Source: Rhodospirillales bacterium
GTDB taxonomy: Bacteria; Pseudomonadota; Alphaproteobacteria; Rhodospirillales; UBA2165
Assembly (NCBI GenBank): GCA_965207535.1
Contig: CBDBMR010000011.1
Location: forward strand, 78,276-142,275
Length of the DNA stretch: 64,000 nt
Direction of reading: 5' to 3'
Part shown: positions 1-61,607 of the stretch, in pieces
How the letters are laid out: each line of letters begins with the position of its first letter
How positions within the stretch are numbered: position 1 is the first letter of the stretch
Notes under the pieces: generated by a model
What the model saw: the letters and a program-made list of their open reading frames with translations, nothing else
Databases searched by the model: none
Told to the model about the DNA's origin: nothing
Position numbers and translations under genes: made by a program

Positions 1-1672
1 CCAAGCCCAGCCGAGCGCAGCGGACGAGGAAGCTTTCCACCGCCTTGGCGGGCGACTTGATTTGCTCGGCGATGTCGTGGACCACCGGCGGCCTGGTATG
101 CCCGTCTTCGAGAATCGGCTTGATCCGCTTCCACAGCGCTTCGTCCTTGGACGACAGTTGGGGCTCGAAGCCCGGCAGGAAGTAGCTGGCGCCCCGGTTG
201 ACGATGGTTCCGTCGGCGACCAGGGTTTCGAGAATGGGCGTAAACCGTTTGGTCGGCATCCGGACACCGGTCTCGCGGCGGAGCCCGTCGGCACTGGGCC
301 CGGGCTTCTCGGGCGCGTTTTCGTGCCACGCCCGGAGCGCGGCCGTGATGCCGTCCCGGATTTCGGTCCAGTGGGCAGGCGCGTAGCCGGTCTCCAAATT
401 CTCACCGGCGCGGACGATCTCGACCGCCTCCCACAGGGCGGCTTGTTCGTCGCCGTTCAGGTTCCAGCCGACGATGAACGCCGGGAGATCGACGCCCAGC
501 GCCTGCCGGTCGAGAAGCTTGCGGAGCGCATCGGCGGCGGTGCGCTCCTCCATGGCGGCGATGGCGACGAGACGTTCCGGCCTGGCGCGGCCGCGGGCGG
601 GGCCGTGGGGGTCGAGCACCCGGCCGCCGGCGACGGTCCGGGTCGCCGACTGATCGCGAAGAATGAATCCGTCGCCGCAGAGCGCGCCGATCCGCCGGTC
701 GAGAACGATTTGCACCAACGCGCTCCCGCCGGGCGGGATGTTCTTGTCTTCGAGGACCGCCACGCGGCCCGGAATTTCGGCGGCGCCCAGGTGGACATGG
801 ACCGGCGTCCAGTGCTTGAGGGACTTGGCCTCGCCCGGCAGCACCCGGAGCCGGGCATCGAACCGGGGAACCGGATCGTGGATCGCATCGGCGACCAGCC
901 AGTCGCCCCGGTGCACGTCGTCCTTGGTGAGGTTTTGGCCGGTGATGTTGAGGGCGCAGCGCTGACCGGCCGCCCCCGCCTCCGCTTCCTCGTTCTGGGC
1001 GTGGATGCCGCGCACCCGGACGCGCTGGCCGCCAGGGGTAAGGGTCAGTTGATCGCCCACATTCACCGCGCCCGCGAACACCGAGCCGGTGACGATGAGG
1101 CCGGCGCCCTGAAGGGTGAATGCCCGGTCGATGGCGAGGCGGAAATTGCCATGAACCTCCCGGTCGCCGATCAACTCGGACGCGACGGCCAGATGCTCCT
1201 TGAGTTCACCGATCCCATCGCCGGTCACCGCGGACACCGGCAGGATTTCCGATCCCTCGAGGCCGGTCTCCATCAGGAGGAACTCGATCTGTTCGGTGAC
1301 GTCCCTGATCCTCGCCTCGTCGACCCGGTCGATCTTGGTCAGCGCGACCACCCCTTGATCGATTCCGAGGAGGTCGAGGATCGCCAGATGCTCCTCGGTC
1401 TGGGGCATGGGTCCGTCATCGGCGGCGATGACCAGCAGCGCGTAATCGATGCCGGAAACGCCGGCCAGCATGTTGCGAACGAAGCGCTCGTGACCCGGCA
1501 CATCGACAAATCCCATGACCTTGCCGCTGGCCATCGGCTTGTAGGCGAAGCCGAGATCGATGGACATGCCGCGTTTTTTCTCTTCCGGCAGCCGGTCGGT
1601 GTCGACCCCGGTCAATGCCTGCACCAGTAAGGTCTTGCCGTGGTCGATGTGGCCGGCGGTCGCGACGATCAC
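1..1672 (-). CDS. selB: Selenocysteine-specific translation elongation factor SelB (3' end runs off the left window edge)
   Basis: My own translation of the minus strand from the GTG at 1672 gives [44 protein letters not shown]...[10 protein letters not shown]...[10 protein letters not shown], the G1/G3/G4 motifs and the E. coli SelB N-terminal pattern. There is no stop before position 1, so the ORF track omits it. The start overlaps the selA stop as GTGA (1669-1672). Confidence 0.9.
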
Positions 1673-3114
1673 CTGGACGCGCCCCCCGGCGTCAACCGGT
1701 CGAGCTGGCCGACGAAGGCTTCCACGTCTTCGAGACAGCGGAGATCGAGAAGGAAGGCGCCTTCGTGGACCCGGCCGATGACCGGGATGGGGAGCGAGCG
1801 GAACGCCTTGGCGATTCGATTGAGCGCGGCGCCGCTGCCCCGCTTGCCGGTTGACGGGGTAATGCGGAGGGCGACGCTGTCCAGCCGCTCCACCGGCAGG
1901 GAGCCACTGCCGATCTGGCTCTGGCAGCCGGCCAGCTCGACGGCGGCGATCCCGTCAAGCGCCCGGGACACCGGATCGACGATCTGCTTGCCGGCCGCGG
2001 CAATTTCATCGGCCTGGCGCGCCAGCAGCCTGAGCGCCGGCATCCGCTCCACGAGGCGGTCGGGATCGAGATAGAGGCGGAGCACGGCGCTCAGCGCCGC
2101 CATGGTCACCTTGTCGATCCGCAAGGCCCGCTTCATCGGGTTCTTCTTTATTTTGTCGATGAGGTCCTTCTCGCCGACGATCATGCCGGCCTGCGGCCCG
2201 CCCAGCAGCTTGTCGCCGGAGAACGTCACCACGGACATGCCCTGGGCCAGGGCTTCCGCCGCCGTCGGTTCGTGGGGCAGGCCGAATTGGGCAAGGTCCA
2301 CCAATGTGCCGCTGCCGAGATCATCGACGCAGGGAATACCGTGTTTCCGTGCCAGTTGGGCGAGTTCGGAGTCGCTCACCTCCTTGGTGAAGCCCTGCAC
2401 CTCGTAGTTGGAGGTATGGACCTTCAGCAACAGCGCCGTCCTGCCGCTGATGGCTTCCTCGAAATCCTTCAGATGCGTCCGGTTGGTGGTCCCGACCTCA
2501 TGCATTTTGCAGCCGGCCCGGCGGATGATGTCGGGCATGCGGAACGAGCCGCCGATCTCCACCAGTTGGCCGCGGGAAACGGGAACCTCCTTGCCCTTGG
2601 CCAGCGTATTGAGGACCAGCAGGACCGCCGCCGCGTTGTTGTTCACCACCGTCGCCGCCTCGGCTCCGGTCAGCTCGGCCAACAGGTCATCCACGTGAAC
2701 GTCCCGGTCGCCCCGCCTGCCGCTCTCCAGATCGTATTCCAGGTTGGAGGCGCCGCCGGCAACGAGGGTCATGGCCTCGATCGCCTCCCGCGGCAGGGGC
2801 GCGCGGCCCAGGTTGGTGTGCAGGACCGTGCCCGTCAGGTTGAAGACTTTTTTGAGCGACGGCGCCGATTTCGCCGCCAGCAGATCCGCGACGGAAGCCA
2901 GCACGGCCTCTTCCGCGGTATCGGCATTCCCGCCGGCGCCGAGGACTCGCTGCCGCAACTCGCCGATGACGGCGCGGACGGCATCCGTGGTCGCCCGGCG
3001 GCCGTAGGCGTCGGCCAGCGCCCGGCCATCATCATGGCGCAGCAGCTTGTCTACCGACGGCAACACGGCCTGCAGCGGTTTGGAGGTCTCTGTCATGGTC
3101 GAACAGACGCCCAA
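1669..3114 (-). CDS. selA: L-seryl-tRNA(Sec) selenium transferase (selenocysteine synthase) SelA
   Basis: 481-aa ORF. The PLP-lysine region [17 protein letters not shown] and overall length are typical of SelA. It is translationally coupled to selB. The start could instead be the internal Met at 3096 (MTETSKPL). Confidence 0.9.
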
Positions 3115-3231: not shown

Positions 3232-3271
3232 CCCGGCAACGAATTCTCAAACTCATTGGATGGGGTGATAC

Positions 3272-4474
3272 ATGGTTAGGATGGACGCGCTGGCGCCCGC
3301 GATGGCGCAGCGGATGACAGACCTAGTGCTGCCGGAAGTCGAGAGCAGCGCCTGGAGCAAGGCGAAGCCGCTCAACGAAATGCGGGTGGCGATCGTCTCT
3401 TCCGCTGGACTTCATCTCAAAACCGACCGCCCGTTTTTCAGAGGCGACGTGGATTATCGGGTCATTCCCTCCGATACGGACGGCGCGGACCTGTTTATGA
3501 GTCACGTTTCGTCCAACTATGACCGGTCGGGATTTCAGGAAGACATCAACGTGTCCTTCCCCATCGATCGAATCAGGGAACTCGCCGAAGAAGGCTTCAT
3601 CGGCTCGATCGCGAAGAATCATATCTCATTCATGGGCGCGACCGACCCCACCGGCATGGAGCAGAAGGCCAAAGAGGCCGCGGCTATTCTCAAGGAGGAC
3701 AACGTCGACGCGGTCGCCCTGTCGGGCGTCTGACCCATGTGCACGCGCGCCGTGAGCGTGCTGGCCAACTACCTCGAGCGGGAAGGCTTCGTGACGGCGA
3801 TCATCAGCCTGATCAAGCTCCATACGGAGAAGATCGGCGTGCCGCGAGGTCTCGCCGTGCCGTTCGAGCTGGGCCGCCCTTATGGCGCGCCGACCGACGC
3901 CGAGTTCCAGAAACAGGTGCTGAAGCAGCAACTCAAACTCATGGAGAGCCCTTCGGGGCCCGTGCTGGCGGACTTCGATGACGACCCGCCGGACGGCAAG
4001 CCGTCCGACGGCTGGGACTGCGCCGTCGAGCTGCCGCCGGTATTCGAGGACACCGGTGATCTGGCCGGCCTCAGGGCCGCGGTGAACGCCGAGATCGACG
4101 CCCTCCGTCCGGCCTATGCGAAGGCCAGGGCACGCCGCGGAAGAACCACCGTCGGCGTCAGCGGAATGAATATCGAGATGGCGAGCGAGCTGCTCCTGGC
4201 CTTCGTCGAGGACGAGGGTATTCGCAGTCCCAATCCGGAATTCCCGCTGGCCATGGCGCTGAAGCTCGCCAGCGAAGACTTCAAGGCCTACTACTCCGAG
4301 GCCATGGCGGCCGAAGGCTGCATCGCGTCGAGCATGCAGATCGCCGATTGGTTCTGGAACGAAACCACCGGCGCCAAGGTGATGGCCGCGTTCAAGAAGG
4401 CCTGTGACGAGGCCTCGGACGAGAAAATCGTCGATATGGCTTGGGGCGTCGCGCCCGGCGGACGCCTGCCGTAG
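3272..4474 (+). CDS. GrdB/PrdB-family (glycine/sarcosine/betaine/D-proline reductase component B-like) selenoprotein with in-frame UGA (Sec) at 3731-3733
   Basis: Track ORFs 3272..3733 and 3737..4474 share one frame and are separated only by TGA plus one codon (CCC). The read-through sequence is ...NVDAVALSGV-U-PMCTRAVSVLANYLEREG..., which matches my recollection of the U-x-x-C-T-R context of GrdB-family selenoproteins. selA and selB are adjacent, and a hairpin follows the TGA. Confidence 0.8.
3741..3761 (+). promoter_or_regulatory. Candidate bacterial SECIS hairpin for the UGA at 3731
   Basis: GCACGC (3741-3746) and GCGTGC (3756-3761) form a perfect 6-bp GC-rich stem with the 9-nt loop GCGCCGUGA. 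The stem starts 8 nt after the UGA, and the loop contains GU. Confidence 0.45.
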
Positions 4475-7241: not shown

Positions 7242-8414
7242 TCAATTTTGATTGACGTAAAACTCGCGCAGTATAGCCACCACTTCCGGCCGGCTGAACT
7301 CGGTTGGGATTTCCTCGCCGCCGGCCAGCATCTCCCGCTGGCGGGTCCCCGAGATCTGGATCCTGTGTTCGTCGCCGTGCGGGCAGGAACGCGCCGTCGC
7401 CATACCGCCGCAGGCCCTGCAGTAAAACGTGATGTCGATCTTGAGGGGATGAATTTCGATCGCGCCTTCCCACAGGGTGTCGAAGATATTCTGAGCATCG
7501 AACGGCCCGTAATAGCTTCCGACGCCCGCGTGGTCCCGCCCGACGATCAAATGCGAGCAACCGTAGTTCTGCCGGACCACGGCGTGCAGCAGCGCTTCGC
7601 GGGGTCCCGCATAGCGCATCTCCAGCGGGACCCCGGCTTGAATGGCCGTGCCCTCCCGGAAGTAGTTCGAAATCATGGCGTCGATGGCCTGCACGCGGGT
7701 CTCCGCCGGGATGTCCCCCGGTTTGAGCTTTCCCAGCACCTGATGGATGAAGACACCGTCGGTCACCTCGATGGCAATTTTCACCAGGTGTTCGTGACTG
7801 CGGTGCATGGGGTTACGAGTTTGAAATGCCGCGATCCTCGACCAACCGAGTTCCTCGAACATAGCTCGGCTTTCGTGAGGATAGACGCAGAGTTCAGTGT
7901 ACTGCGCCCGGAACGGCCCCTCATCGAAAACCGTCACCGTCCCGCCGAGATTTACCGGCGGCTGTGCGAGGACCTTTTCAGCCCCGGGATGGGCCGGGTC
8001 CCCGGTCTTGAAGACGTTCGCATTCTCGAATGCGTGATCCGGTTCATACCGCTCCGACACCGCCATGGTGCCCATGACGGTGCCGGTTTCGCCGTCAACC
8101 AGTGCAACCTCATCCCCATCGTCGACGGTCTCCGCCAGATCCCGGGCCGCCGACAGGGTGATGGGAATGGGCCAGAATGTTCCATCGGCCATTTTCATGT
8201 CCCCGGCAACACCTCGCCAGTCGGCCTCCCCCATGAAACCGGTCAGCGGCGTATAGGCCCCCATACCCATCAGAATAAGGTCGGATGTCTCGCGGCTGGA
8301 CATGGGAACCTGGATGAGGCCTGCGGCGGCGGCCCGGCGCGCCTCGCGCTCGGACTCCTCGATCAGCAACGGGCGTAGAGCGTCTCCACCATGGGGAGAA
8401 ATCAGGTGCGGCAT
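7242..8414 (-). CDS. sat: Sulfate adenylyltransferase (ATP sulfurylase), homo-oligomeric Sat type
   Basis: Shows the QTRNPMHRSHEHL and GRDHAGVG motifs and a PUA-like N-terminal region. The start is set at the internal Met MPHLISPHGG (8414). Confidence 0.85.
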   Translation of the reverse strand: MPHLISPHGGDALRPLLIEESEREARRAAAAGLIQVPMSSRETSDLILMGMGAYTPLTGFMGEADWRGVAGDMKMADGTFWPIPITLSAARDLAETVDDGDEVALVDGETGTVMGTMAVSERYEPDHAFENANVFKTGDPAHPGAEKVLAQPPVNLGGTVTVFDEGPFRAQYTELCVYPHESRAMFEELGWSRIAAFQTRNPMHRSHEHLVKIAIEVTDGVFIHQVLGKLKPGDIPAETRVQAIDAMISNYFREGTAIQAGVPLEMRYAGPREALLHAVVRQNYGCSHLIVGRDHAGVGSYYGPFDAQNIFDTLWEGAIEIHPLKIDITFYCRACGGMATARSCPHGDEHRIQISGTRQREMLAGGEEIPTEFSRPEVVAILREFYVNQN

Positions 8415-8517
8415 CGTGGCTCCGGGTTCGGCTGGCTGGGAGACGGTGAAGGTCGAATTCGGCGCTCTTATTGTCCGGCGGCGCGGCAACGTCAAGCACT
8501 ACTGAAAGACCAGCCGC

Positions 8518-9558
8518 CTACATGGTCTCCAATGCCGGCATGATGTCGGATGCAAACCGCTGCATGGACTCCAAGGCATGTCCGTGGGCGATGTCGCCGA
8601 AGTAGAAACCTAGGATCATGTAGTTGAGGCCGAGCGCTTCGGCATGGGCCGCGAGGGTCTCCTTGACCGTCTCGGCCGTCCCGACGACCACCGACCCCCG
8701 CTGCTGCGCTTCGGCGAGTGTCGGCGGAATGAATTGGGCGATGTTCGGACCCGGCACCTTGTTGACCCGCCAGAGTTTCGTCAGGCTCGCCTCCCAAGCC
8801 TGGTAGGCGGGCTCGGCCCGCTTCAGCGCTTCGTCCTCGGTCTCGGCGATCACAAGATGCCGCATGATGCCGACCGCCGCGCCCTCCTTGAAACCGCCGT
8901 CACCGCCGTCACCCGGCCGGCCGCGCTTCGCCAGCGCCTCCTTGAACGACTCGACCCCGGGCCGGGCGAATTCGACACCGCCCAAGGTAACGAAGTGATA
9001 GCCGTTCTCGCCGCCGAATTGCCCGCCTTCGGCGTGGTTGGTCGGATACCAGATCGGCGGGTGGCGTTTTTGCAGGGGCCTCAGCTCCATGGGCACATCG
9101 ACGTACGAATAGTTGTCGCCTTGATGATCGAGCACGTCATGGGACAATCCGTAAACCACCGCTTCGAGGCACTCCCGAAAGATGGGCCGAGACGTGTCCG
9201 GATCCACATCGTGAAATTTGAGTTCGAAGGGCGACACGCCGCGCCCCACGCCGACATCGAGCCGCCCGTGGCTGAGGTGATCGAGAATGCAAATCTCCTC
9301 GATCAGGCGAAGGGGCGTATAGAGCGGCAGAAGGTAGCACAGCGGACCGAGCCGGATGTTTTTGGTCGCCCGGGCTATCGCGCCCAGATAGACGCCCGGC
9401 ACCGGCACCATGTTCAGCGGCGTCGCATGGTGCTCGGCAACGTGATAGCAGTAGAAACCGGCTTCATCGGCGGCGGAAACAAACTCGAGCCGCTCATCGA
9501 ACTCCTGAGCCAGCGGACGATTGTTGACGTCCACGTGATCGAATAGTCCGAATTTCAT
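8518..9558 (-). CDS. LLM-class (luciferase-like) flavin-dependent oxidoreductase
   Basis: 346-aa ORF beginning MKFGLFDHVDV..., with AEHH...LGPLCYLLPLYTPLRLIEEICILDHLSHGRLDVGVGRG, typical of the luciferase-like monooxygenase family. Confidence 0.8.
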   Translation of the reverse strand: MKFGLFDHVDVNNRPLAQEFDERLEFVSAADEAGFYCYHVAEHHATPLNMVPVPGVYLGAIARATKNIRLGPLCYLLPLYTPLRLIEEICILDHLSHGRLDVGVGRGVSPFELKFHDVDPDTSRPIFRECLEAVVYGLSHDVLDHQGDNYSYVDVPMELRPLQKRHPPIWYPTNHAEGGQFGGENGYHFVTLGGVEFARPGVESFKEALAKRGRPGDGGDGGFKEGAAVGIMRHLVIAETEDEALKRAEPAYQAWEASLTKLWRVNKVPGPNIAQFIPPTLAEAQQRGSVVVGTAETVKETLAAHAEALGLNYMILGFYFGDIAHGHALESMQRFASDIMPALETM

Positions 9559-9713
9559 CGCCCCGCCTCCCCGGCGCCGCCCATCCTTGCTTCGCGGTCT
9601 CGGCCGCCGCCGTCACTCATCCGGTTTGCCCGGAGTGCATTCCATGCCGCGTCCTGATCCTATAGGGTTCATCGGCAACCGCACAACCAGCACGCAACAA
9701 TTACGGGGAATCC

Positions 9714-10697
9714 ATGGAAACGCGGCAACTCGGCAACTCGGGAATCGAAATTCCGCCGTTCGGCATTGGCTGCAACCGGTTGACGGATTCCTCCGATCCC
9801 GGGCTTTTCGCGACCGTTGACGAAGCGCTCTCGCGGGGCGTCATGCATTTCGATTCCGCCGAGTCATATGGCGACGGAAAAAGCGAGGAATTCCTGGCTG
9901 CCGCGCTCAAGGGACGCCGGGACCGGGCGTTCATCGCCAGCAAGTTCGGCATGCGGCGCGGCGGCGGTAAAGCGGTCATCTGTGGAACGCCCGAATATCT
10001 GAGGGAGGCCTGCGATCTCAGCCTCGGACGGCTTCGGACCGACCGTATCGACCTCTACTACCAGCATCGCGTCGACCCGAACGTCCCGGTGGAAGAGACC
10101 TGGGGCGCCATGAAGGAACTGGTCAAAGCGGGCAAGGTTCGGAGCCTGGGGATCTCCAATCCCAGCGTGGAAGAAATCCGCCGCGCCCACGCCGTCCATC
10201 CCGTATCCGCGTTGCAGATGGAGTACTCTCTCTTCACCCGTGGGGTCGAAGACGAATTCCTGCCGCTTTGCGCGGAACTGGGTATCACCTTCGTCGCCTA
10301 TGGGCCGCTGGCCTTCGCCCTTCTGTCGGGCAAGATCACCAGCAAGGAGGACTTTCCCGAAACCGACCGTTACCGGCGAAACATGCCCCGTTTTCAGGAC
10401 GAAAACATCGGCCACAATCTGGAATTGCTGCGGACCCTCCGGGAGGTGGCCAGCGAGCTCGGCGGAACGCCCGGTCAGGTCGCCCTCAAGTGGCTGATGG
10501 ATAACCCGGTCCACGTGGTGCCGATCCCGGGATCGCGCCGCAAGGCGCATCTAGTCGAGAATGCCGAGGCCTGCGGCCTTGAACTGACCGCCGAGCAGTA
10601 TCGGCAGCTCTCAGACGCGTATCCCGCCGGTGCCGCCAAGGGAGATAATCGGCCGCAAACGGGCGCTAGGCATTCTGGGCGCGATAGAAGTCGCTGA
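9714..10697 (+). CDS. Aldo/keto reductase
   Basis: 327-aa ORF with AKR hallmarks: FDSAESYGDGKSEE, IDLYYQHRVDP, VRSLGISN, IPGSRR. Its 3' end overlaps the convergent AhpD-like gene by 32 nt. Confidence 0.85.
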   Translation: METRQLGNSGIEIPPFGIGCNRLTDSSDPGLFATVDEALSRGVMHFDSAESYGDGKSEEFLAAALKGRRDRAFIASKFGMRRGGGKAVICGTPEYLREACDLSLGRLRTDRIDLYYQHRVDPNVPVEETWGAMKELVKAGKVRSLGISNPSVEEIRRAHAVHPVSALQMEYSLFTRGVEDEFLPLCAELGITFVAYGPLAFALLSGKITSKEDFPETDRYRRNMPRFQDENIGHNLELLRTLREVASELGGTPGQVALKWLMDNPVHVVPIPGSRRKAHLVENAEACGLELTAEQYRQLSDAYPAGAAKGDNRPQTGARHSGRDRSR

Positions 10698-11775
10698 TCC
10701 CGATTTCATCCCGCATCTCGGTCGAGTCGGTGCCGCCCGCGGCTCCCTCGTAGGGAATCCCGATCGCATCGGCGAGCCGTACAAAGCCGTGGAATGCCGC
10801 GGCAATAGCCGCCGCGTCCACCGTTGCCGGCTCACCCATCAGTTCGAGCATTTTTTGCCGGTGAGCCGATGTCCCGTTCTCGTCCCGCCGCGCGACCGCC
10901 TCCGCGAAGCCCATCAGCAATTCGGCGTGCTCGATGTCGGTGTCGTGCCGGTATCCCTCCGTAATGTCGTGGAGGTCGACCTCGTTGTCGGCGGCGTTGC
11001 TGCTCTCACGGAGCATGTAGGCATGCGCCGTCGTTCAGTAGAGGCACTGATGAAGCGCCGATATCCGCGCCGCGATGATCTCGATCTGAGGCCGGCTGAT
11101 CGCACGCACGCTGTTACCGAAATCATAAACCTGCCCGCCCTCCAGATAGTGGGCGCCGGCAAGATTCCAATAGTCGCGCTTCGATTGGGGAACCATGCTG
11201 AGAGCCCGCTGGATGTAGCCGGCCGTCGGCGTGGGATACAGGGGACCGTCCTCCGGCACCTCGTCGCCCGGCTCGACGATAGGGAGCCACGCCGCCTCGC
11301 GCCGGGCGCCCGGCGGCAAATAGCGTGAGGGTTCACCGGCGGCGGGCCCGGACAGGACAGCCTCCGGAAGACCCAGGCCGAACGCGAAGGTATCCATGAT
11401 CATGGTCATGGCGATGACGCCGATCATCTCGACGAATTCGCCCTCGAGCATGCCGTCATCGATATGTCTCCGGCACCACCTCTCACTGAGCCGGCCGGGA
11501 TCGGTGACCACCCGGTGAACGATATCCACTTGCGCCGGAGTGAGATTGCCCAATGACGTATGTTCCAGGGACAGATTGTCGGGTGACAGCGCCTCCTTGA
11601 GTTCGGCGCAGGCCGGACAATTCCGGGCATTGCGGACTTCTTCGGCAATCCACACCCGCTGCTCGCCGGTGAGCCAGGTGCCGGGACGGGCAATGCAGGC
11701 GAACGCGGCCTCATGCGCACTCAACAGATCGCTCCGGATGTCATACGGGCTATCCGGGTACGGGTTACCTGCCAT
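10666..11775 (-). CDS. Two-domain carboxymuconolactone-decarboxylase/AhpD-like selenoprotein with in-frame UGA (Sec) at 11035-11037
   Basis: Track ORFs 11035..11877 and 10666..11016 share one frame, joined by TGA plus six sense codons. The read-through sequence is ...IIAARISALHQ-C-L-Y-U-TTAH-AYMLRE, the CMD/AhpD C-x-x-C-x3-H motif with Sec in place of the second Cys. An N-terminal repeat carries C-P-A-C. The start is set at MAGNPYP (11775), preceded by AAGGGGGAGAG. Confidence 0.75.
11008..11031 (-). promoter_or_regulatory. Candidate SECIS hairpin for the UGA at 11035-11037
   Basis: The mRNA reads ACGG-C-GCAUG-CCUA-CAUGC-U-CCGU, giving 4 + 5 bp with a C/U mismatch and a tetraloop. It starts 4 nt after the UGA. 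The loop has no GU, so this is only tentative. Confidence 0.3.
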
Positions 11776-14938: not shown

Positions 14939-15322
14939 ATGAAAATTTCATTACTGGATCACGTGAATATCGAAGCGGTCGACGTGGACTTGTCGGCCAA
15001 ATTCTATGAAGACGTACTGGGCCTGAAATCGGGGGAGCGGCCGCCGTTCGACCGGCCGGGCCATTGGATGTACTGCGGCGACCGGCCCATCATCCACATC
15101 ATCTCGCCGTTGCCCGACAACAAGCTGCTCACCGGCTCCAAGGATGCCGCCATCTCGCATTTTTCAATGCAAATCGAGGACTTTGACGCAGCCAAAAAGC
15201 GCCTGGACGATTTCAACGTCGAGTATGAGGAAACCAACGTGCCCGATACCGAACTCCGGCAGCTGTTCTTTCCCGATCCCGATGGCGTTCTGATCGAACT
15301 TCTCTACAACCCGAACCGCTGA
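14939..15322 (+). CDS. VOC (glyoxalase/bleomycin resistance/dioxygenase) family protein
   Basis: MKISLLDHVNIEAVDVDLSAKFYEDVLGL... is typical of VOC-fold proteins. The start is trimmed to the Met at 14939. Confidence 0.7.
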   Translation: MKISLLDHVNIEAVDVDLSAKFYEDVLGLKSGERPPFDRPGHWMYCGDRPIIHIISPLPDNKLLTGSKDAAISHFSMQIEDFDAAKKRLDDFNVEYEETNVPDTELRQLFFPDPDGVLIELLYNPNR

Positions 15323-56770: not shown

Positions 56771-56857
56771 TGGCGTAATTCCGGCGTTCACTCCCCTGGG
56801 CCTATGATGCGGGGTCGTGGGCGCCGCGCCCCGTTAGGCTAAGCAAGGAGAGTGACC

Positions 56858-57889
56858 ATGGGTGAGTACGTTGGCTTTGATGTTTCGAAGGAAGAGACAG
56901 CATTTTGCGTGAAGGACGGTGCAGGAGAGATTTTGGCGCAAGGCAAGGCGGAGACCGACCCTCGGGCGTTGTTTGAGGTGTTGAAGGAGCATTGTCTGTG
57001 TCCGGATCGGATTGTTCTGGAGACCGGGACACTGTCGGGCTGGCTGGCACGGAGTCTGGACGAGATGGGGATTGCGGTGGAAGTGATCGATGCCCGCCAG
57101 GCCCATGCGGTGATGCGTCTTCAACACAACAAGACCGATGCCAAGGACGCCGAGCTTCTGGCGGAGATCGCGCGCACCGGCTTCTGCCGCCCTGTATCGG
57201 TGAAGAGCGAGTTGGCCCAGGAGAGTCGGGTTCTGCTCAAGGCTCGGTCTCACCTGGTGCGCCAGCGCCGCGATACTCACAACACGATCCGGGGTCTTCT
57301 TGCCTCGTTGGGGATCCGTTTTCCCAAGGGCACGAGCAAGCTGCTCCGCGGAGTGCGCGCGCAGCTCGAGGACCGTCCCGAGCTACGCCCGGCGATTGCG
57401 CCGTTGCTGTCCTCGCTCACGGCGCTGGACAGCACGATTGCGGAGCTGGATGAGGCGGTCGCTGCGCGCGTCAAGGACGATCCGGCCTGCCGCCTGCTGA
57501 TGACCGTGCCCGGAGTCGGACCGCTCACGGCGCTGGCCTATGTGAGTACCATCGGCGACGCCGGGCGCTTCGCCCGATCGCGCAGCTTGGGCGCTTATCT
57601 CGGGCTGACCTCCAGACGTTGGCAATCGGGCGAGATGGATTACAGCGGGTGCATCTCCAAGCACGGCGACGCGATGCTGCGCAGCTTATTGTACGAGGCC
57701 GCCAACAGCCTGCTTGTGGTGGTGCGCCGGGCCCATCCGCTCAAGGACTGGGCGCGGCGGATCAAAAAGCGGACCAGCCACAAGAAGGCCTGCGTGGCCC
57801 TGGCGCGCAAGCTTGCGGTGATCCTCCATCGCATGTTGATCACTGGCGAGCCGTTCCGCTGGCCGGCCCGAGAGATTCAGGCGGCATGA
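56858..57889 (+). CDS. IS110-family DEDD transposase/recombinase
   Basis: MGEYVGFDVSKEETAFCV..., LETGTLSGWL, and the C-terminal MTVPGVGPLTALAYVSTIGDAGRFARSRSLGAYLGLTSRRWQSGE, typical of IS110. An AAGGAGAG RBS lies 7 nt before the ATG at 56858. Confidence 0.9.
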   Translation: MGEYVGFDVSKEETAFCVKDGAGEILAQGKAETDPRALFEVLKEHCLCPDRIVLETGTLSGWLARSLDEMGIAVEVIDARQAHAVMRLQHNKTDAKDAELLAEIARTGFCRPVSVKSELAQESRVLLKARSHLVRQRRDTHNTIRGLLASLGIRFPKGTSKLLRGVRAQLEDRPELRPAIAPLLSSLTALDSTIAELDEAVAARVKDDPACRLLMTVPGVGPLTALAYVSTIGDAGRFARSRSLGAYLGLTSRRWQSGEMDYSGCISKHGDAMLRSLLYEAANSLLVVVRRAHPLKDWARRIKKRTSHKKACVALARKLAVILHRMLITGEPFRWPAREIQAA

Positions 57890-58173
57890 GTGAGAGAACG
57901 GACTGCGTAGACGACGGTAACGAGCACGAGGAGACAACATAGTTCCGCACGAGCGGAAAGGCGCGTCCCCGCCGGGACGTCGGCCGAGGCCATCCCGTTT
58001 TATGTGTTGCAAGGCGGCTCAGGCCGCCAACAATGCGTCCTCTGACCCTGGGAGGCCGAAGCCAAAGGGCACCATCATGAAGCAAGCCAGCCAGAGCGCC
58101 GGCAAAGACTTCGTAGACAACCCTGTACCCGGCGGCGGCAAGCCCGGAGGAGTTGACCCGAACGCCGGAATTA
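57890..58173 (+). ncRNA. Candidate bridge (guide) RNA region of the IS1111-type element
   Basis: This is the 284-nt non-coding right end. TTATGTGTTG (58000-58009) is the exact reverse complement of the target flank CAACACATAA (58176-58185). AGACAACA (57932-57939) and TAGACAAC (58114-58121) repeat the junction sequence at 58172-58180. No structure model was run. Confidence 0.35.
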
Positions 58174-58525
58174 GACAACACATAAGGCACGGCAAACCCT
58201 TGGCGGCGAGCGCCGTCACCTCGGCCAGGGCCGCCTCCGCCGGCTCACTCGCAAGCTGACCGGCGTAGATGGAGCGGTAAAGGTCAACGTCGCCCGACTT
58301 GGCCGCGTCCCGCCCCGCTTCCGGGTTACCCAAGGCCTGCAGGTGCTTGTACTCGATCCCCGCGTCGTCGAGCGCGGCGTTCAAGGGGAATTTGCAGAAG
58401 TCGGGCTTGCGGGACCAGGGCACGTCCCGGACATCCACCAGCACGCTCACCCCGTCCCGTTCAAGGGCGGCGACGAACTCGGCGATGCTCGCGCCCTCGT
58501 AGCCGATGGTGGCAACGATGGTCAT
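58174..58525 (-). pseudogene. DUF488-family gene, N-terminal fragment (interrupted by the IS)
   Basis: MTIVATIGYEGASIAEFVAALERDGVSVLVDVRDVPWSRKPDF... is a typical DUF488 N-terminus. The family-like sequence stops at ...GLPCLMCC, where the IS begins. The remainder of track ORF 58019..58525 reads into IS DNA. Confidence 0.75.
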
Positions 58526-58628
58526 GGTTCACCGATGGCCTGTTTTGCACTCCCTCCTCTTCCAGGGGAGGAAACAAATTTCTGCCGGGCATTACGGCAA
58601 ATTGAGACGGCTTCGGGAGTGAAACTCA

Positions 58629-59120
58629 CTACGGAAAGATCCCGTGCCTGGATATCCCGACGCCGGTGCCGATGCCCGTGGCGGGGGCATCCGCGACGAT
58701 GCCCGAGCCCGGCCCATAGACCGACGCGCCCGGCAGGAGGTCCAACCCGCCATAGACAAACGCCACCTTCAAGAACAGCGCCATCACCAGCAGCACGAAG
58801 GCGATCGTCGCCGCCTGTTTGGCGAACCAGAAATAGGTCTCCCGGAGCGCAACCCCGATGACCTGTTGGGCGATCTCGGCCGGCGGGCGGAACTCCTTCT
58901 TGAGGATCAGCCACGCCTCGGTCTTCTTGTAGGGACGGGTGCGGGCGCGAAGCGCGCACCACACAAGAATGAAGGCGAAGATCAGGCTGGCCATGCCGCC
59001 CACCTGGGCGGCGAAGGGCGGATCGAACGAGAGCCCGAAGATCAGGCAGAAGATGGCGAGACCGGTAAACCCGCTGGCCCGGCCGACGGACACGTAGGCG
59101 GCGTTCTCGATCTCGTTCAT
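58629..59120 (-). CDS. Hypothetical integral membrane protein (about 4 TM segments), co-transcribed with the deiodinase-like gene
   Basis: The start ATG is 3 nt after the upstream TAG stop. Four hydrophobic segments. No family recognised. Confidence 0.5.
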   Translation of the reverse strand: MNEIENAAYVSVGRASGFTGLAIFCLIFGLSFDPPFAAQVGGMASLIFAFILVWCALRARTRPYKKTEAWLILKKEFRPPAEIAQQVIGVALRETYFWFAKQAATIAFVLLVMALFLKVAFVYGGLDLLPGASVYGPGSGIVADAPATGIGTGVGISRHGIFP

Positions 59121-59123
59121 CCG

Positions 59124-59816
59124 CTAACCATTCAAGTGCCCCCCGATGGCGTCGGCGAATTCGTCCGGCTTGAAGTCCCTCGGTCCCTCGCCGCCCACAT
59201 AGGCAAGCTGGCCGCCGGCGTCGATGAGGAACAGCCGCATGGGGATGGCGATGTAGCGCTCTTCCACCGCATTGCCGATATCGTCGATCAGCATGGGCAT
59301 CTTGAGGTCGAGCATGTGCTGGCAGGCGCTCGCCACCTCGGTGCGTTCGTCGTCGGTGGTCGGTTCCCTGTAGACGATGCCCTCCTGCAGGTTCTTCGGC
59401 GAGCGCCAGCCGTCATCGGCATGGGCTTCGCGGATGTAAATTGACAGGAACTGCACATAGTCCTTGTACCGGTCGTAAATCTCGTTGAGGCGCACGGCCC
59501 AACCGCGATAGGGCGGTCACGTATAGGAGCCGAATATCAGCGCCACCGGCTTGCCGCGCAGGGATTCGAGGCTCACCGTCTCGCCGGTACGACCCTTTTC
59601 GGGATCGAGCACGTCGAGGGTGAAGGCAGGCGCCTCGTCGCCGACGCCGGGCACTTTCTCGCGGCGCGCCTTCTGCCACGCCATCTTGGCGTCAAATTCC
59701 TCTTCGGTGAGATCGGAGATATCGATCCAAACCTTGCGTTTCTCCGGATAGGGCAGATCGGCGAAAACCTTCACCAACTCACCCGGATCCATCGATCTGA
59801 AATCGCCGTCGGCCAT
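59124..59816 (-). CDS. Iodothyronine-deiodinase-like thioredoxin-fold selenoprotein with in-frame UGA (Sec) at 59517-59519
   Basis: Track ORFs 59517..59855 and 59124..59495 share one frame. The read-through sequence is ...LRGKPVALIFGSYT-U-PPYRGWAVRLNEIYDRYKDYVQFLSIYIREAHADDGW. It matches the deiodinase active site (NFGS(C/A)T-U-PPF) and the downstream (E/D)EAHxxDGW motif. The start is set at MADGDF (59816). Confidence 0.8.
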
Positions 59817-59945
59817 TATTTTGCCCCCCAACCAATGATTTTGTCGTGAAGTCACCCATGTTCGCGCCGGTGGCCTCGGGGGTCAAGACGGGTGCCGGTG
59901 ACATAAACTGCTTGTGAGACCGCGCCCAGCCGCTATGCAGAGGGC

Positions 59946-61124
59946 ATGCGAGGGAAACTGCCGAAAACCTGGAACCGGCACTTCGCGCTGATCCTGGGCT
60001 CGACCATGACGGTTCAGCTCGGCATGCCGATCATCACCCCGTCCTTCCCGGCCGTGCAGCAAGCGCTTGGCGTGGCGGATGCGGACATCGGCCTGATCAT
60101 GGCGGTCTATTCTCTACCGGCTCTGGTCTTCGTGCCGCTGCTCGGCCTGGTCGCCGACCGATTCTCCAAGAAATGGGTCGTGGTGCCGGGCCTGGTGCTG
60201 TTCACCGCGGGCGGCTTCGCCTTCACGGCGGAGAATTTCGAGACCCTGTTGTGGCTGCGCTTCATCCAGGGGATCGGGGCCAGCGGCCTGTCCGGCCTCG
60301 CCCTCGGCCTGGTCGGCGACTACTTCCGGGGAGAAGACCGAACCCGGGTGCTGGCCAGTGCCAGCTTCCTGCAGAATGTCAACGCCGGCCTGCTGCCGGT
60401 GATCGGCGGCGCCCTCGTGGTCATCGCCTGGGAGGCGCCCTACCTGGCGAGCTTCCTGGCCGTCCCGCTGGCGCTGTTCGGGCTGGTTATCATGAAGCCC
60501 GGCGACAACACCCCGGCGCCCGGCGGCAGGGCGCTGCTCGGTCATGCCTGGCGCAACATTACCGACCGGCGGGCGCTCGAACTCATGGGCATGACCGGTG
60601 GATTCATCTTTGTCGGCTTCGGGGTATTCGTGACCTACATCCCGACCTTCCTCGCCAACAACTTCGCCACCGGCTCGTTTGTCATCGGCCTCATCGTCGG
60701 CGCGCGGTCGGTCTCCGGCGCTATCATGTCGTCCCAGATCACCAGGCTGATGCGCGCCGTCTCGCCCCGCTGGCTGATCTTCAGCGCCTTCCTGGTCCAG
60801 TCGGCGGGCCTCGCCGTCGTTCCGGTGCTGCCCAACGACTGGTCGGTGATGATCGCCGCCCTGTGTTATGGCGGGGCATTCGGGATCGTCCGCCCGGCGC
60901 TGCAGATCATGATGCTGGAGAACGCGCCCGAGGATTTGCGGGCCACCTTCGGCGGCGGCATCGCGTTTTCCCTGCGCCTCGCCCAGACCATCGGCCCGTT
61001 TATCGCCGGGCTGGTGATCGGCGCCTGGGGGTTCGACCCGCTGTTTTTCAGCGCCGCCGCGGTGCCCCTGCTCCTCGCCCTCTACGCCCTCAGGGCGGAG
61101 GCGTTGAAGCCGGCAGCGCGTTAG
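59946..61124 (+). CDS. MFS transporter
   Basis: 392 aa with 12 hydrophobic segments and an MFS loop motif (GLVADRFSKK). Confidence 0.8.
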   Translation: MRGKLPKTWNRHFALILGSTMTVQLGMPIITPSFPAVQQALGVADADIGLIMAVYSLPALVFVPLLGLVADRFSKKWVVVPGLVLFTAGGFAFTAENFETLLWLRFIQGIGASGLSGLALGLVGDYFRGEDRTRVLASASFLQNVNAGLLPVIGGALVVIAWEAPYLASFLAVPLALFGLVIMKPGDNTPAPGGRALLGHAWRNITDRRALELMGMTGGFIFVGFGVFVTYIPTFLANNFATGSFVIGLIVGARSVSGAIMSSQITRLMRAVSPRWLIFSAFLVQSAGLAVVPVLPNDWSVMIAALCYGGAFGIVRPALQIMMLENAPEDLRATFGGGIAFSLRLAQTIGPFIAGLVIGAWGFDPLFFSAAAVPLLLALYALRAEALKPAAR

Positions 61125-61528
61125 CCGTCAATCACCGCCGTCACATCGATTTCCACCAGCGCGCCTTCCACCAGCAGCGCTTCGACGCCGACACACGTGG
61201 ATGAGGCGGAGCCATCGTCCCCATAAAAGTCCGTCATGGCCTTCATGATGACCGGCCGGTGATCGAGTTGCAGCCCGACGATGAAGACGCGCTGACGGAC
61301 CACATCGGCGGGCGTCGCACCGACAAGCGCGAGCGAGTCCCTGATGGTGCCGTAGATGTAGGCCATCTGCGCCGCCAAATCGCCGGGGCCGACCAGCTCG
61401 CCGTCCTTGGTGGAGGCGACAAGGCCCGACAGGTGAACGGTGGTGCCCCCCTCGGAGGTCACCAGGTTGGTGAAGTGGGGCTTGTTGTGCAGGAATTCGG
61501 GCCGGTGGCGTTCTATGGTGACGGACAT
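61121..61528 (-). CDS. RidA/YjgF/Endoribonuclease L-PSP family protein
   Basis: ...TTVHLSGLVA...GDLAAQMAYIYGTIRDSL...VEALLVEGALVEIDVTAV is typical of RidA. The start is trimmed to the Met at 61528. Confidence 0.75.
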   Translation of the reverse strand: MSVTIERHRPEFLHNKPHFTNLVTSEGGTTVHLSGLVASTKDGELVGPGDLAAQMAYIYGTIRDSLALVGATPADVVRQRVFIVGLQLDHRPVIMKAMTDFYGDDGSASSTCVGVEALLVEGALVEIDVTAVIDG

Positions 61529-61607
61529 GTGATTTTTCCTCCCCAAAAGGCGGCAAATTCGGGATCAAGACTGGCCATTCCCTGCCTCGGCGGCTTATAT
61601 AACCGCC

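Follow-up and report, generated by a model that had tools for sequence, protein, structure and literature searches.

The gene described here lies on the minus strand of a 64,000-nucleotide stretch of DNA from a Rhodospirillales bacterium (contig CBDBMR010000011.1, positions 78,276 to 142,275; hereafter the window, whose own numbering is used throughout) and contains a single in-frame TGA, at codon 100. This UGA is a true selenocysteine (Sec) codon, and a true stop or a pseudogene is all but excluded – a conclusion that follows from the conservation of the TGA among relatives, the presence of Cys at the same column in other homologues, the covariation of a hairpin just downstream, the occurrence of selA and selB in the window, and the linkage of selA–selB to the gene in relatives. 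Judged by its sequence, the encoded protein belongs to the iodothyronine-deiodinase family, and the gene is a further member of the known bacterial deiodinase-like selenoprotein family. The product is very probably a soluble, cytoplasmic selenoprotein of 230 residues, of the bacterial ‘deiodinase-like protein’ kind, which would act through the mechanism proposed below.

The in-frame TGA and its decoding

An original prediction had joined two open reading frames (ORFs; 59517..59855 and 59124..59495, both on the minus strand) across one TGA, and translation bears this out: the two entries of the ORF list share a common frame, and 59816..59124 (-) reads as 230 codons, with the TGA at 59519-59517 as its sole internal stop and TAG at its end. 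The active-site stretch translates as FGSYT-U-PPYR ... IYIREAHADDGW; around codon 100 the text is GKPVALIFGSYT, stop, PPYRGWAVRLNEIYDRYKDYVQFLSIYIREAHADDGW or, in a longer upstream form, RGKPVALIFGSYT, stop, PPYRGWAVRLNEIYDRYKDYVQFLSIYIREAHADDGW. The likely start codon is ATG 59816; a GGGGGG stands 7 nt upstream of it, and the N-terminal start MADGDFR is shared by the window protein and its four close relatives, L001–L004. Compared with these four, the ratio of nonsynonymous to synonymous substitution rates (dN/dS) over the whole frame is 0.15–0.38.

When one genome per species was scanned, relatives were found in at least 596 genomes, and the DNA comparison took in the 80 best loci of these, which hold 84 gene copies at 40–95% identity, the aligned column being mapped back to DNA. 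The hosts of these loci include Rhodospirillales, Burkholderiales, Hyphomicrobiaceae, Chloroflexota/Dehalococcoidia, Gaiellales, Planctomycetota, Myxococcota, Poribacteria and others. All 84 copies, spread over many phyla, have TGA at the column of codon 100, and the residues around it are strongly kept: Gly96, Ser97, Thr99 and Pro102 are invariant, Phe95 occurs in 83 of the 84, and Pro101 and Arg104 in 82 each. Ten database homologues (P0003, P0009, P0011 and P0013–P0019) have Cys at the same column. Three further entries (P0001, P0002 and P0008) show a Trp there – FGSFTWPPF and similar – which is presumably a TGA translated under a non-standard code by a metagenome gene caller, and P0004–7 and P0010 are C-terminal fragments starting about 7–10 residues past the Sec column. 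The original prediction had named homologues with neither Cys nor Sec at this column, and two independent genes in related genomes, as findings that would tell against a selenocysteine codon; between the TGA of every copy and the Cys of the ten homologues its proposal holds, and none of the 80 loci has two independent genes.

An alternative genetic code, with TGA read as Trp or Gly, is rejected: TGA ends 17 of the 42 ORFs of the window with a high G+C content at third codon positions (GC3) and is thus an ordinary stop here, and selA and selB are present. The remaining stops of these ORFs are 23 TAG and 2 TAA, in a sequence of 63% G+C. TGA is usually the dominant stop in G+C-rich alphaproteobacteria, and the excess of TAG looked unusual.

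In the window, selA and selB, which form part of the machinery for Sec insertion, lie about 56 kb from the deiodinase-like gene. The selA product is 55% identical to SelA of the relative L027 by tblastn; selB is cut by the window start, its match covering positions 1–516 of the 581 in TIGR00475. No tRNA-Sec was found within the 64-kb window, whose sole tRNA is a tRNA-Lys; nor was selD seen there, although no search was aimed at it. In four relatives, selA–selB is located within 1.5 kb of the deiodinase-like gene. In L027 and L032, selA begins 22 nt past the gene and is followed by selB and, in L027, by tRNA-Sec; in L017, a divergent selA–selB–tRNA-Sec cluster stands just upstream of the gene; and in L019, selA–selB lies 1.4 kb downstream, with no tRNA-Sec found in the locus; L017, L019 and L027 were the loci scanned for this tRNA. 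It is unusual for a selenoprotein gene to be tied so directly to its decoding machinery.

By analogy with the way in which bacteria are established to decode Sec, SelB with its Sec-tRNA(Sec) would bind a short hairpin 13–15 nt past the UGA, with the G/U-containing pentaloop CGUGC, as the selenocysteine insertion sequence (SECIS). The SECIS-type stem in the window begins 13 nt past the UGA and bears a loop at +21 to +25 that contains G and U; as a 7-bp stem with U59488 bulged it has a folding energy of -8.4 kcal/mol. It also displays the feature described for the bacterial SECIS elements of the Sargasso Sea study – a stem-loop shortly after the UGA with a small, G-containing apical loop (PMC1088965). 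Folding of the single sequence was uninformative, and we therefore relied on comparative analysis. Applied to 50 sequences with the common loop CGUG(C/A), RNAalifold finds a family-wide register of 5 bp, 59501-59497/59491-59487 (alignment columns 22–26/32–36), in which three pairs show compensatory changes. Pair 22–36 occurs in six types (CG 13, GC 12, AU 11, UA 4, UG 3 and GU 1) and couples the first base of a Trp, Gln, Lys or Glu codon with the silent third base of a Leu codon, while pair 25–33 (GC, AU, GU, UA and UG) joins the first base of an Ala, Thr or Ser codon to the silent third base of an Arg codon. Covariation of this kind, across codons, is inexplicable by protein constraints. The named structure has 81.5% of its cells paired, compared with 23–44% when the partner is slid by 1–3 columns, and its covariation score was reached by none of 500 shuffles, although related sequences can inflate this measure.

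The original prediction had seen a weak hairpin after the UGA (CGCGG/CCGUG, 59507-59493, -5.5 kcal/mol). It is present and overlaps the SECIS, but its pairs are not kept in relatives, and RNAalifold picks the CGUGC-loop stem in its place. A lower stem, formed by columns 13–18 with 38–43, is partly supported and is not claimed: among 46 distinct sequences, 4–24 are unpaired at each pair (at most 17 in five of the six), and compensatory changes are all but absent. Rfam gave no match near the gene at gathering thresholds, and one chance snoRNA match (E = 1.8).

Distant Sec-type homologues, from Gaiellales, Chloroflexota, Planctomycetota, Myxococcota and others (L046, L049–L054, L056–L058, L060, L061, L063–L066 and L068–L080), have a SECIS of different design, located about 11–30 nt past each TGA: a G+C-rich stem of 5–6 bp with the loop AGGYU(G), formed from the codons R-x-Q-x-G-x and starting some 10–11 nt past the UGA, in which RNAalifold finds five pairs, four of them with compensatory changes. 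One protein family is thereby served by two SECIS architectures at overlapping positions. Some genomes also have two or three neighbouring Sec genes of the deiodinase-like kind, every one of which has a TGA: L038 has copies at 8189-8833 (minus strand) and 10001-10600, L068 at 9833-10510 and 10545-11126 (minus strand), and L039 at 9310-9816, 10001-10585 and 15011-15319, with identical sequence around the TGA, which suggests a recent duplication or an assembly repeat in the case of these three.

If the TGA were instead a real stop – in a pseudogene, or between two small genes, with no selenocysteine involved – one would understand why gene callers split the locus into two ORFs, why database entries such as P0004–7 and P0010 exist as C-terminal fragments, and why the window hairpin is by itself insignificant. 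A real stop is at odds, however, with a TGA kept in every copy across phyla amid strong residue conservation on both sides, with Cys at this column in other homologues, with a hairpin that covaries, with selA and selB in the window and selAB–selC adjoining the gene in relatives, and with a dN/dS well under 1 over the whole frame; its probability is close to nil.

Family, active site and candidate chemistry

With Cys in place of the internal stop, the window protein matches Pfam T4_deiodinase (PF00837) at 72.2 bits against a cut-off of 27 (E = 5.1e-20), residues 39–220 aligning to profile positions 56–229 of 237; it also matches AhpC-TSA (35.4 bits, cut-off 26), Redoxin (24.7 bits) and, in NCBIfam, ResA (NF002854, E = 1e-6). 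The NCBIfam model NF038285 ‘deiodinase_rel’ gives E = 1.9e-51 and 175.6 bits, below its cut-off of 250, over profile positions 175–340 of 347: the catalytic domain of the window protein matches, whereas the long N-terminal half of this model of ~347 residues is missing from it. Members of the NF038285 type, with ~330–350 residues (P0014, P0015 and P0017), carry a Cys where the window protein has Sec and retain the QH of Dio3 His219 where it has Pro; one of them, the Planctomycetota protein P0015, bears the database name ‘TlpA family protein disulfide reductase’.

The closest sequences in the PDB are mouse Dio3 (4TR3, E = 4e-14) and then Dio2 (9H48, E = 4e-11), with tryparedoxin and ResA following at 3e-5 to 3e-4. 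Opposite the window motifs, Dio3 has FGSCT(U->C)PPF and IYIEEAHPSDGW, and Dio2 has FGSATCPPF and VYIDEAHPSDGW, so that FGSxT(U/C)PP(F/Y) and EAHxxDGW are both aligned between the window protein and these enzymes. The deiodinase-like identity first proposed thus passed the T4_deiodinase profile check and has Dio3 and Dio2 as its best structures, and the proposed parallel to the vertebrate active site and its downstream motif is upheld by the alignment. For the fold, the AlphaFold model of P0001 – the closest full-length homologue, 56% identical, with a pLDDT of 87.8 – stands in for the window protein. Its best matches are again Dio2 (9H48, E = 4e-13, TMt 0.80) and Dio3 (4TR3, 7.5e-12); ResA, TlpA and DsbE fill ranks 3–30, and peroxiredoxins are also among the matches. 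The deiodinase insertion after strand β2 comprises 29 residues in the window protein and 26 in Dio3.

Residues were mapped by alignment to mouse Dio3, with their roles taken from the Dio2 paper (PMC11592359) and their conservation counted over the 84 Sec-type copies. Ser97 (Dio3 Ser167), Thr99 (Thr169), Tyr127 (Tyr197), Glu130 (Glu200) and His132 (His202) are present in all 84, as is the TGA of U100 itself (Sec170); Trp137 (Trp207) is found in 69 of 83 copies, and Arg194 (Arg260) in 83 of 83. Asp135, within EAHxxDGW, is kept in 80 of 83. Other positions part from the vertebrate enzyme: the proton-relay His219 is replaced by Pro152 (Pro in 82 of 83), the substrate-clamp Arg275 by Glu210 in a variable column, and Cys239 by Met173 in a column not conserved as Cys. 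The bacterial copies have instead a Cys of their own in helix α2, Cys165, present in 81 of 83 and in most Cys-type homologues; this conservation makes Cys165 the candidate resolving residue.

Vertebrate Dio1–3 (4TR3, 9H48) and the window protein share the thioredoxin/peroxiredoxin-like fold, the deiodinase insertion, FGSxT-U-PP(F/Y) and most active-site residues. The vertebrate enzymes possess an N-terminal transmembrane anchor, in whose place the window protein has a hydrophilic helical extension of ~55 residues: no hydrophobic segment, signal sequence or transmembrane anchor was found in the sequence of these 55 residues, which form three short helices in the AlphaFold model of P0001. The two also differ in their SECIS elements, eukaryotic and in the 3′ untranslated region in Dio1–3, bacterial and inside the coding sequence in the window. 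Judged from sequence, the window protein lacks the anchor, His219 and Arg275, three traits peculiar to the thyroid-hormone deiodinases of vertebrates.

Peroxiredoxins and TlpA/ResA resemble the window protein in fold, in a nucleophile at the start of helix α1 and in an invariant Arg before the central strand. The window protein differs in having the deiodinase insertion, no CxxC and, as we read it, no PxxxTxxC, and deiodinase models score far higher against it. PxxxTxxC is the canonical peroxiredoxin active-site motif; in the corresponding stretch of the window protein, KPVALIFGSYTU, Pro90 stands at -10, Ser at -3 and Thr at -1 from the Sec.

By homology with Dio3, Dio2 and the peroxiredoxins, the selenolate of U100 would sit at the N-terminus of helix α1 in a thioredoxin/peroxiredoxin-like fold, ringed by most of the deiodinase hydrogen-bond network (Ser97, Thr99, Tyr127, Glu130, His132 and Trp137) together with Arg194. 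It would attack an electrophilic atom of a small substrate; the selenenyl intermediate would be resolved by Cys165 to a selenenyl-sulphide, which thioredoxin or glutaredoxin could then reduce. The predicted substrate is not thyroid hormone, nor thyronine-like, because the clamp Arg275 and the relay His219 of Dio3 are both replaced. Given this general mechanism, reductive dehalogenation of a halogenated phenolic compound is our tentative first choice, at well under an even chance, and is placed slightly ahead of peroxide reduction because the deiodinase-specific insertion and network are retained; peroxide reduction is a possibility nearly as strong, and other thiol-redox chemistry makes up the remainder. 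The occurrence of Sec, and never Cys, in the 84 closest copies – those of the best 80 loci of at least 596 – suggests a chemistry in which selenium is hard to replace. Aromatic-oxygenase genes are neighbours at some loci (Rieske, VOC and PhyH in the L033 clade, gallate dioxygenase in L022 and L030), and these scattered cases are at best a weak hint at a halophenolic substrate. The DIF dechlorinase of Dictyostelium was considered as a functional analogue and set aside: this dechlorinase is of the GST type, and the deiodinase homologue of Dictyostelium is a different protein.

Among the rival explanations, the strongest – unlikely, yet far from negligible – is that the protein is a selenol peroxidase, namely an atypical 2-Cys (Sec/Cys165) peroxiredoxin that would reduce H2O2 or organic hydroperoxides and be recycled by thioredoxin. 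Its AhpC-TSA score above the cut-off, the Redoxin match, the peroxiredoxins among the fold matches, the Ser at -3 from the Sec, the one conserved distal Cys and the invariant Arg194, whose position we take to match the catalytic Arg of peroxiredoxins, all agree with such a role. So do the peroxiredoxin-like mechanism and fold described in the deiodinase papers (PMC11592359), and ‘a redox function’ is what Zhang et al. suggested (PMC1088965). Against it, the deiodinase profile scores much higher (72 versus 35 bits), Dio2 and Dio3 head the fold search, PxxxTxxC is missing from the sequence as read, and a plain peroxidase would have no need of the conserved deiodinase insertion and EAHxxDGW edge. 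That the protein is a TlpA/ResA-like protein-disulphide reductase, with Sec in place of the first Cys and a protein as its substrate, is improbable: such a reading could draw on the NF002854 match, on the tryparedoxin and ResA sequences in the PDB, on the ResA, TlpA and DsbE structures behind the two deiodinases and on the database name of P0015, but CxxC is missing (U-P-P-(F/Y) in 82 of the 84 copies and U-G-P-F in 2, with no Cys at +3), no cytochrome-maturation or DsbD/CcdA genes occur among the neighbours, and the window protein has no signal peptide or membrane anchor, whereas TlpA and ResA act outside the cytoplasm.

A deiodinase-type selenoenzyme working by the mechanism above is what we prefer, although several observations weigh against it. 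The window clade and L014 carry a U·C mismatch at pair 22–36 of the family register of the SECIS; the 76 nt around and after the UGA, taken as a single sequence, fold no better than shuffles (z = +1.39); and 584 of 1000 shuffles fold as well as the window hairpin, whose support is comparative only. At the active site, the Pro that replaces His219 weakens the case for deiodinase-like proton delivery, and Cys165 does not align with Dio3 Cys239. The neighbourhoods offer no functional anchor: among 127 nearest-neighbour ORFs, with 139 Pfam families, none occurs more than four times. Finally, the literature contains no experiment on any bacterial deiodinase-like member (PMC1088965; PMC9312934).

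A bolder idea, which we consider doubtful, is that the bacterial deiodinase-like selenoproteins constitute a third, oxygen-tolerant class of reductive dehalogenases, beside the corrinoid/Fe-S and the flavin (IYD)/GST-type enzymes, in which the selenolate would abstract the halogen from natural bromo- or iodo-phenolics in aerobic marine and soil bacteria. Compatible with it are the conservation of most of the deiodinase active-site network, the many marine or sponge-associated hosts, and the minority of loci near Rieske, gallate dioxygenase, VOC and PhyH genes. If it were true, the thyroid-hormone deiodinases of vertebrates would descend from this ancient enzyme of detoxification or catabolism.

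Sec- and Cys-containing bacterial ‘deiodinase-like proteins’ (Pfam00837) were described from the Sargasso Sea by Zhang, Fomenko and Gladyshev (2005, Genome Biol 6:R37; PMC1088965), who had 4 Sec and 6 Cys sequences with bacterial SECIS elements and suggested ‘a redox function’, unrelated to thyroid hormone; reviews of 2022 and 2026 list the family as one of unknown function (PMC9312934; PMC13188914). The window gene fits that family in its PF00837 match, its active-site UGA, its Cys homologues and its downstream SECIS with a small G-containing loop, and the handful of sequences known then compares with at least 596 species-level genomes with relatives now. As a discovery the gene carries little weight: the 2005 paper already covered the family together with its Sec/Cys pairing and bacterial SECIS, and genes 91–95% identical are present in public metagenome-assembled genomes. 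The review tables give the deiodinase-like motif as ‘UxxC’ (PMC9312934; PMC13188914); Cys stands at +3 in none of 85 Sec-type sequences, all of them U-P-P-F/Y or U-G-P-F, and the entry is either a slip or refers to a subgroup outside the present sample.

The value of the analysis is partly one of annotation, since gene callers split the gene or read its TGA as Trp and the protein is under-represented in databases as a result. It also bears on a question that has stood for 20 years – what a deiodinase-type selenoenzyme does in organisms without thyroid hormone – and narrows it: the enzyme is predicted to be soluble, keeps most of the active-site network, has lost the thyronine clamp residues, has a conserved candidate resolving Cys of its own and no conserved gene partner, and uses Sec in its 84 closest copies.

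Membrane-protein neighbour and gene context

The coordinates of the gene, of its decoding elements and of the features discussed in this section are collected in Table 1.

Table 1. Features of the window and sel gene clusters near the deiodinase-like gene in relatives
Feature	Position	Strand	Evidence or remark
Deiodinase-like selenoprotein coding sequence	59124..59816	-	translation, Pfam T4_deiodinase, PDB Dio3 match, dN/dS
N-terminal extension, hydrophilic, helical	residues 1-55	-	sequence and homologue model
Thioredoxin/peroxiredoxin-like catalytic domain with deiodinase-type insertion	residues ~56-224	-	
UGA codon 100 read as selenocysteine	59517..59519	-	active-site residue of FGSYT-U-PPY
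SECIS-type hairpin	59484..59503	-	stem 59503-59497/59491-59484, U59488 bulged, loop CGUGC 59496-59492
Putative Shine-Dalgarno-like GGGGGG	59824..59829	-	7 nt before ATG 59816; from sequence
Small membrane protein, 163 residues, three hydrophobic segments	58629..59120	-	3 nt past selenoprotein stop
Terminator-like hairpin with T-rich tail	58581..58601	-	28 nt past membrane ORF stop; possible end of a two-gene transcript
selA, L-seryl-tRNA(Sec) selenium transferase	1693..3108	-	TIGR00474, 591.8 bits vs 267.9
selB, Sec-specific elongation factor binding SECIS	2..1672	-	TIGR00475, 414.5 bits vs 242.25
sel-linked locus, L027	10661-14148		
sel-linked locus, L032	639-3985		
sel-linked locus, L017	6292-9792		
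sel-linked locus, L019	3170-6519		

The membrane-protein ORF does begin 3 nt after the selenoprotein stop, as first reported, but hydropathy yields three hydrophobic segments and not the four transmembrane segments proposed. With a GC3 of 0.90 and a dN/dS of 0.16–0.27 against L001–L004, it is a real gene under purifying selection. Its product has no Pfam or NCBIfam match; it belongs to a family of 77 hypothetical homologues of ~120–165 residues, apparently alphaproteobacterial, in which a precomputed Pfam hit (PF12266) exists for only 2 of the 77. The family shows a conserved N-terminal motif, a nearly invariant Cys25 in the first hydrophobic segment and an RPYKxTExW motif. A role as a CcdA/DsbD-like electron conduit was rejected: one Cys is nearly invariant, and the second Cys of the window protein, Cys54, is not conserved.

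In this lineage the two genes are probably co-transcribed, because only 3 nt separate them and a terminator-like hairpin (58601-58581) follows the second; the evidence for this hairpin is weak, a consensus scan having returned 3 sites against 2.1 expected. The original prediction had suggested a two-gene unit, which might be imagined as a functional system with the membrane protein serving, for example, in membrane-tethered electron delivery or substrate import. The shared strand and close spacing, the terminator-like hairpin after the second gene only, the retention of the arrangement in L001–L004, the purifying selection on both genes and the nearly invariant Cys25 would all suit such a system. 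Co-occurrence tells otherwise. A tblastn search of the membrane ORF against the 80 loci, together with inspection of the next downstream ORF at each, placed the gene beside the enzyme gene in 4 of them – L001–L004, the window clade, 91–96% identical – and in 0 of the other 76; that clade is so shallow (dS ~0.1–0.16) that synteny alone suffices to explain the pairing. Moreover, in three other genomes (L081, L082 and L084/L085) the membrane-protein homologues, at 57–63% identity, lie by themselves among unrelated genes, too tightly flanked to leave space for a deiodinase-like gene, and the survey of the 127 nearest-neighbour ORFs has no recurrent Pfam family to offer as a partner. As a conserved system, the two-gene reading is largely refuted, and a functional pair of any sort is improbable; the membrane gene is a lineage-specific neighbour, kept by local synteny. 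All-against-all clustering of the flanking ORFs likewise gave no partner, the largest true neighbour cluster, covering 14 loci, being a generic SDR.

The pair sits in a housekeeping stretch, in the order gyrA, a cytidylyltransferase-family gene (possibly coaD), MFS, hydrolase, transglutaminase-like, ssb, IS110 transposase, DUF488, membrane gene, selenoprotein gene, divergent MFS, RidA and uvrA. The IS110-family transposase gene (56852..57889, +) lies between ssb and the DUF488 gene (58019..58525, -); the latter ORF has 168 residues, its domain stops at residue 116, and the Pro/Gly-rich tail beyond may have arisen by read-through into DNA adjoining the insertion element.

A marine alphaproteobacterial subclade of the relatives (L033, L035–L037, L040 and L048) has a fixed gene order from ~3.5 kb upstream to 1 kb downstream: Rieske ring-hydroxylating oxygenase, RidA, glyoxalase/VOC protein, deiodinase-like gene and PhyH-type dioxygenase. 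A RidA gene (61121-61546) is found two genes from the window copy too.

A second candidate selenoprotein gene

The divergent neighbour of selA in the window is a second candidate selenoprotein gene (3269..4471, +), whose ORFs 3269-3730 and 3734-4471 share one frame across a TGA at 3731-3733 and read VDAVALSGV-U-PMCTRAVSV. Its N-terminal part matches the D-proline reductase model PrdB (TIGR04483) at 106 bits, below the cut-off of 300, and also the selenoprotein B models GrdB/GrdF/GrdH; in the Sargasso Sea study, selenoproteins of the PrdB-like kind ranked with the most abundant (PMC1088965).

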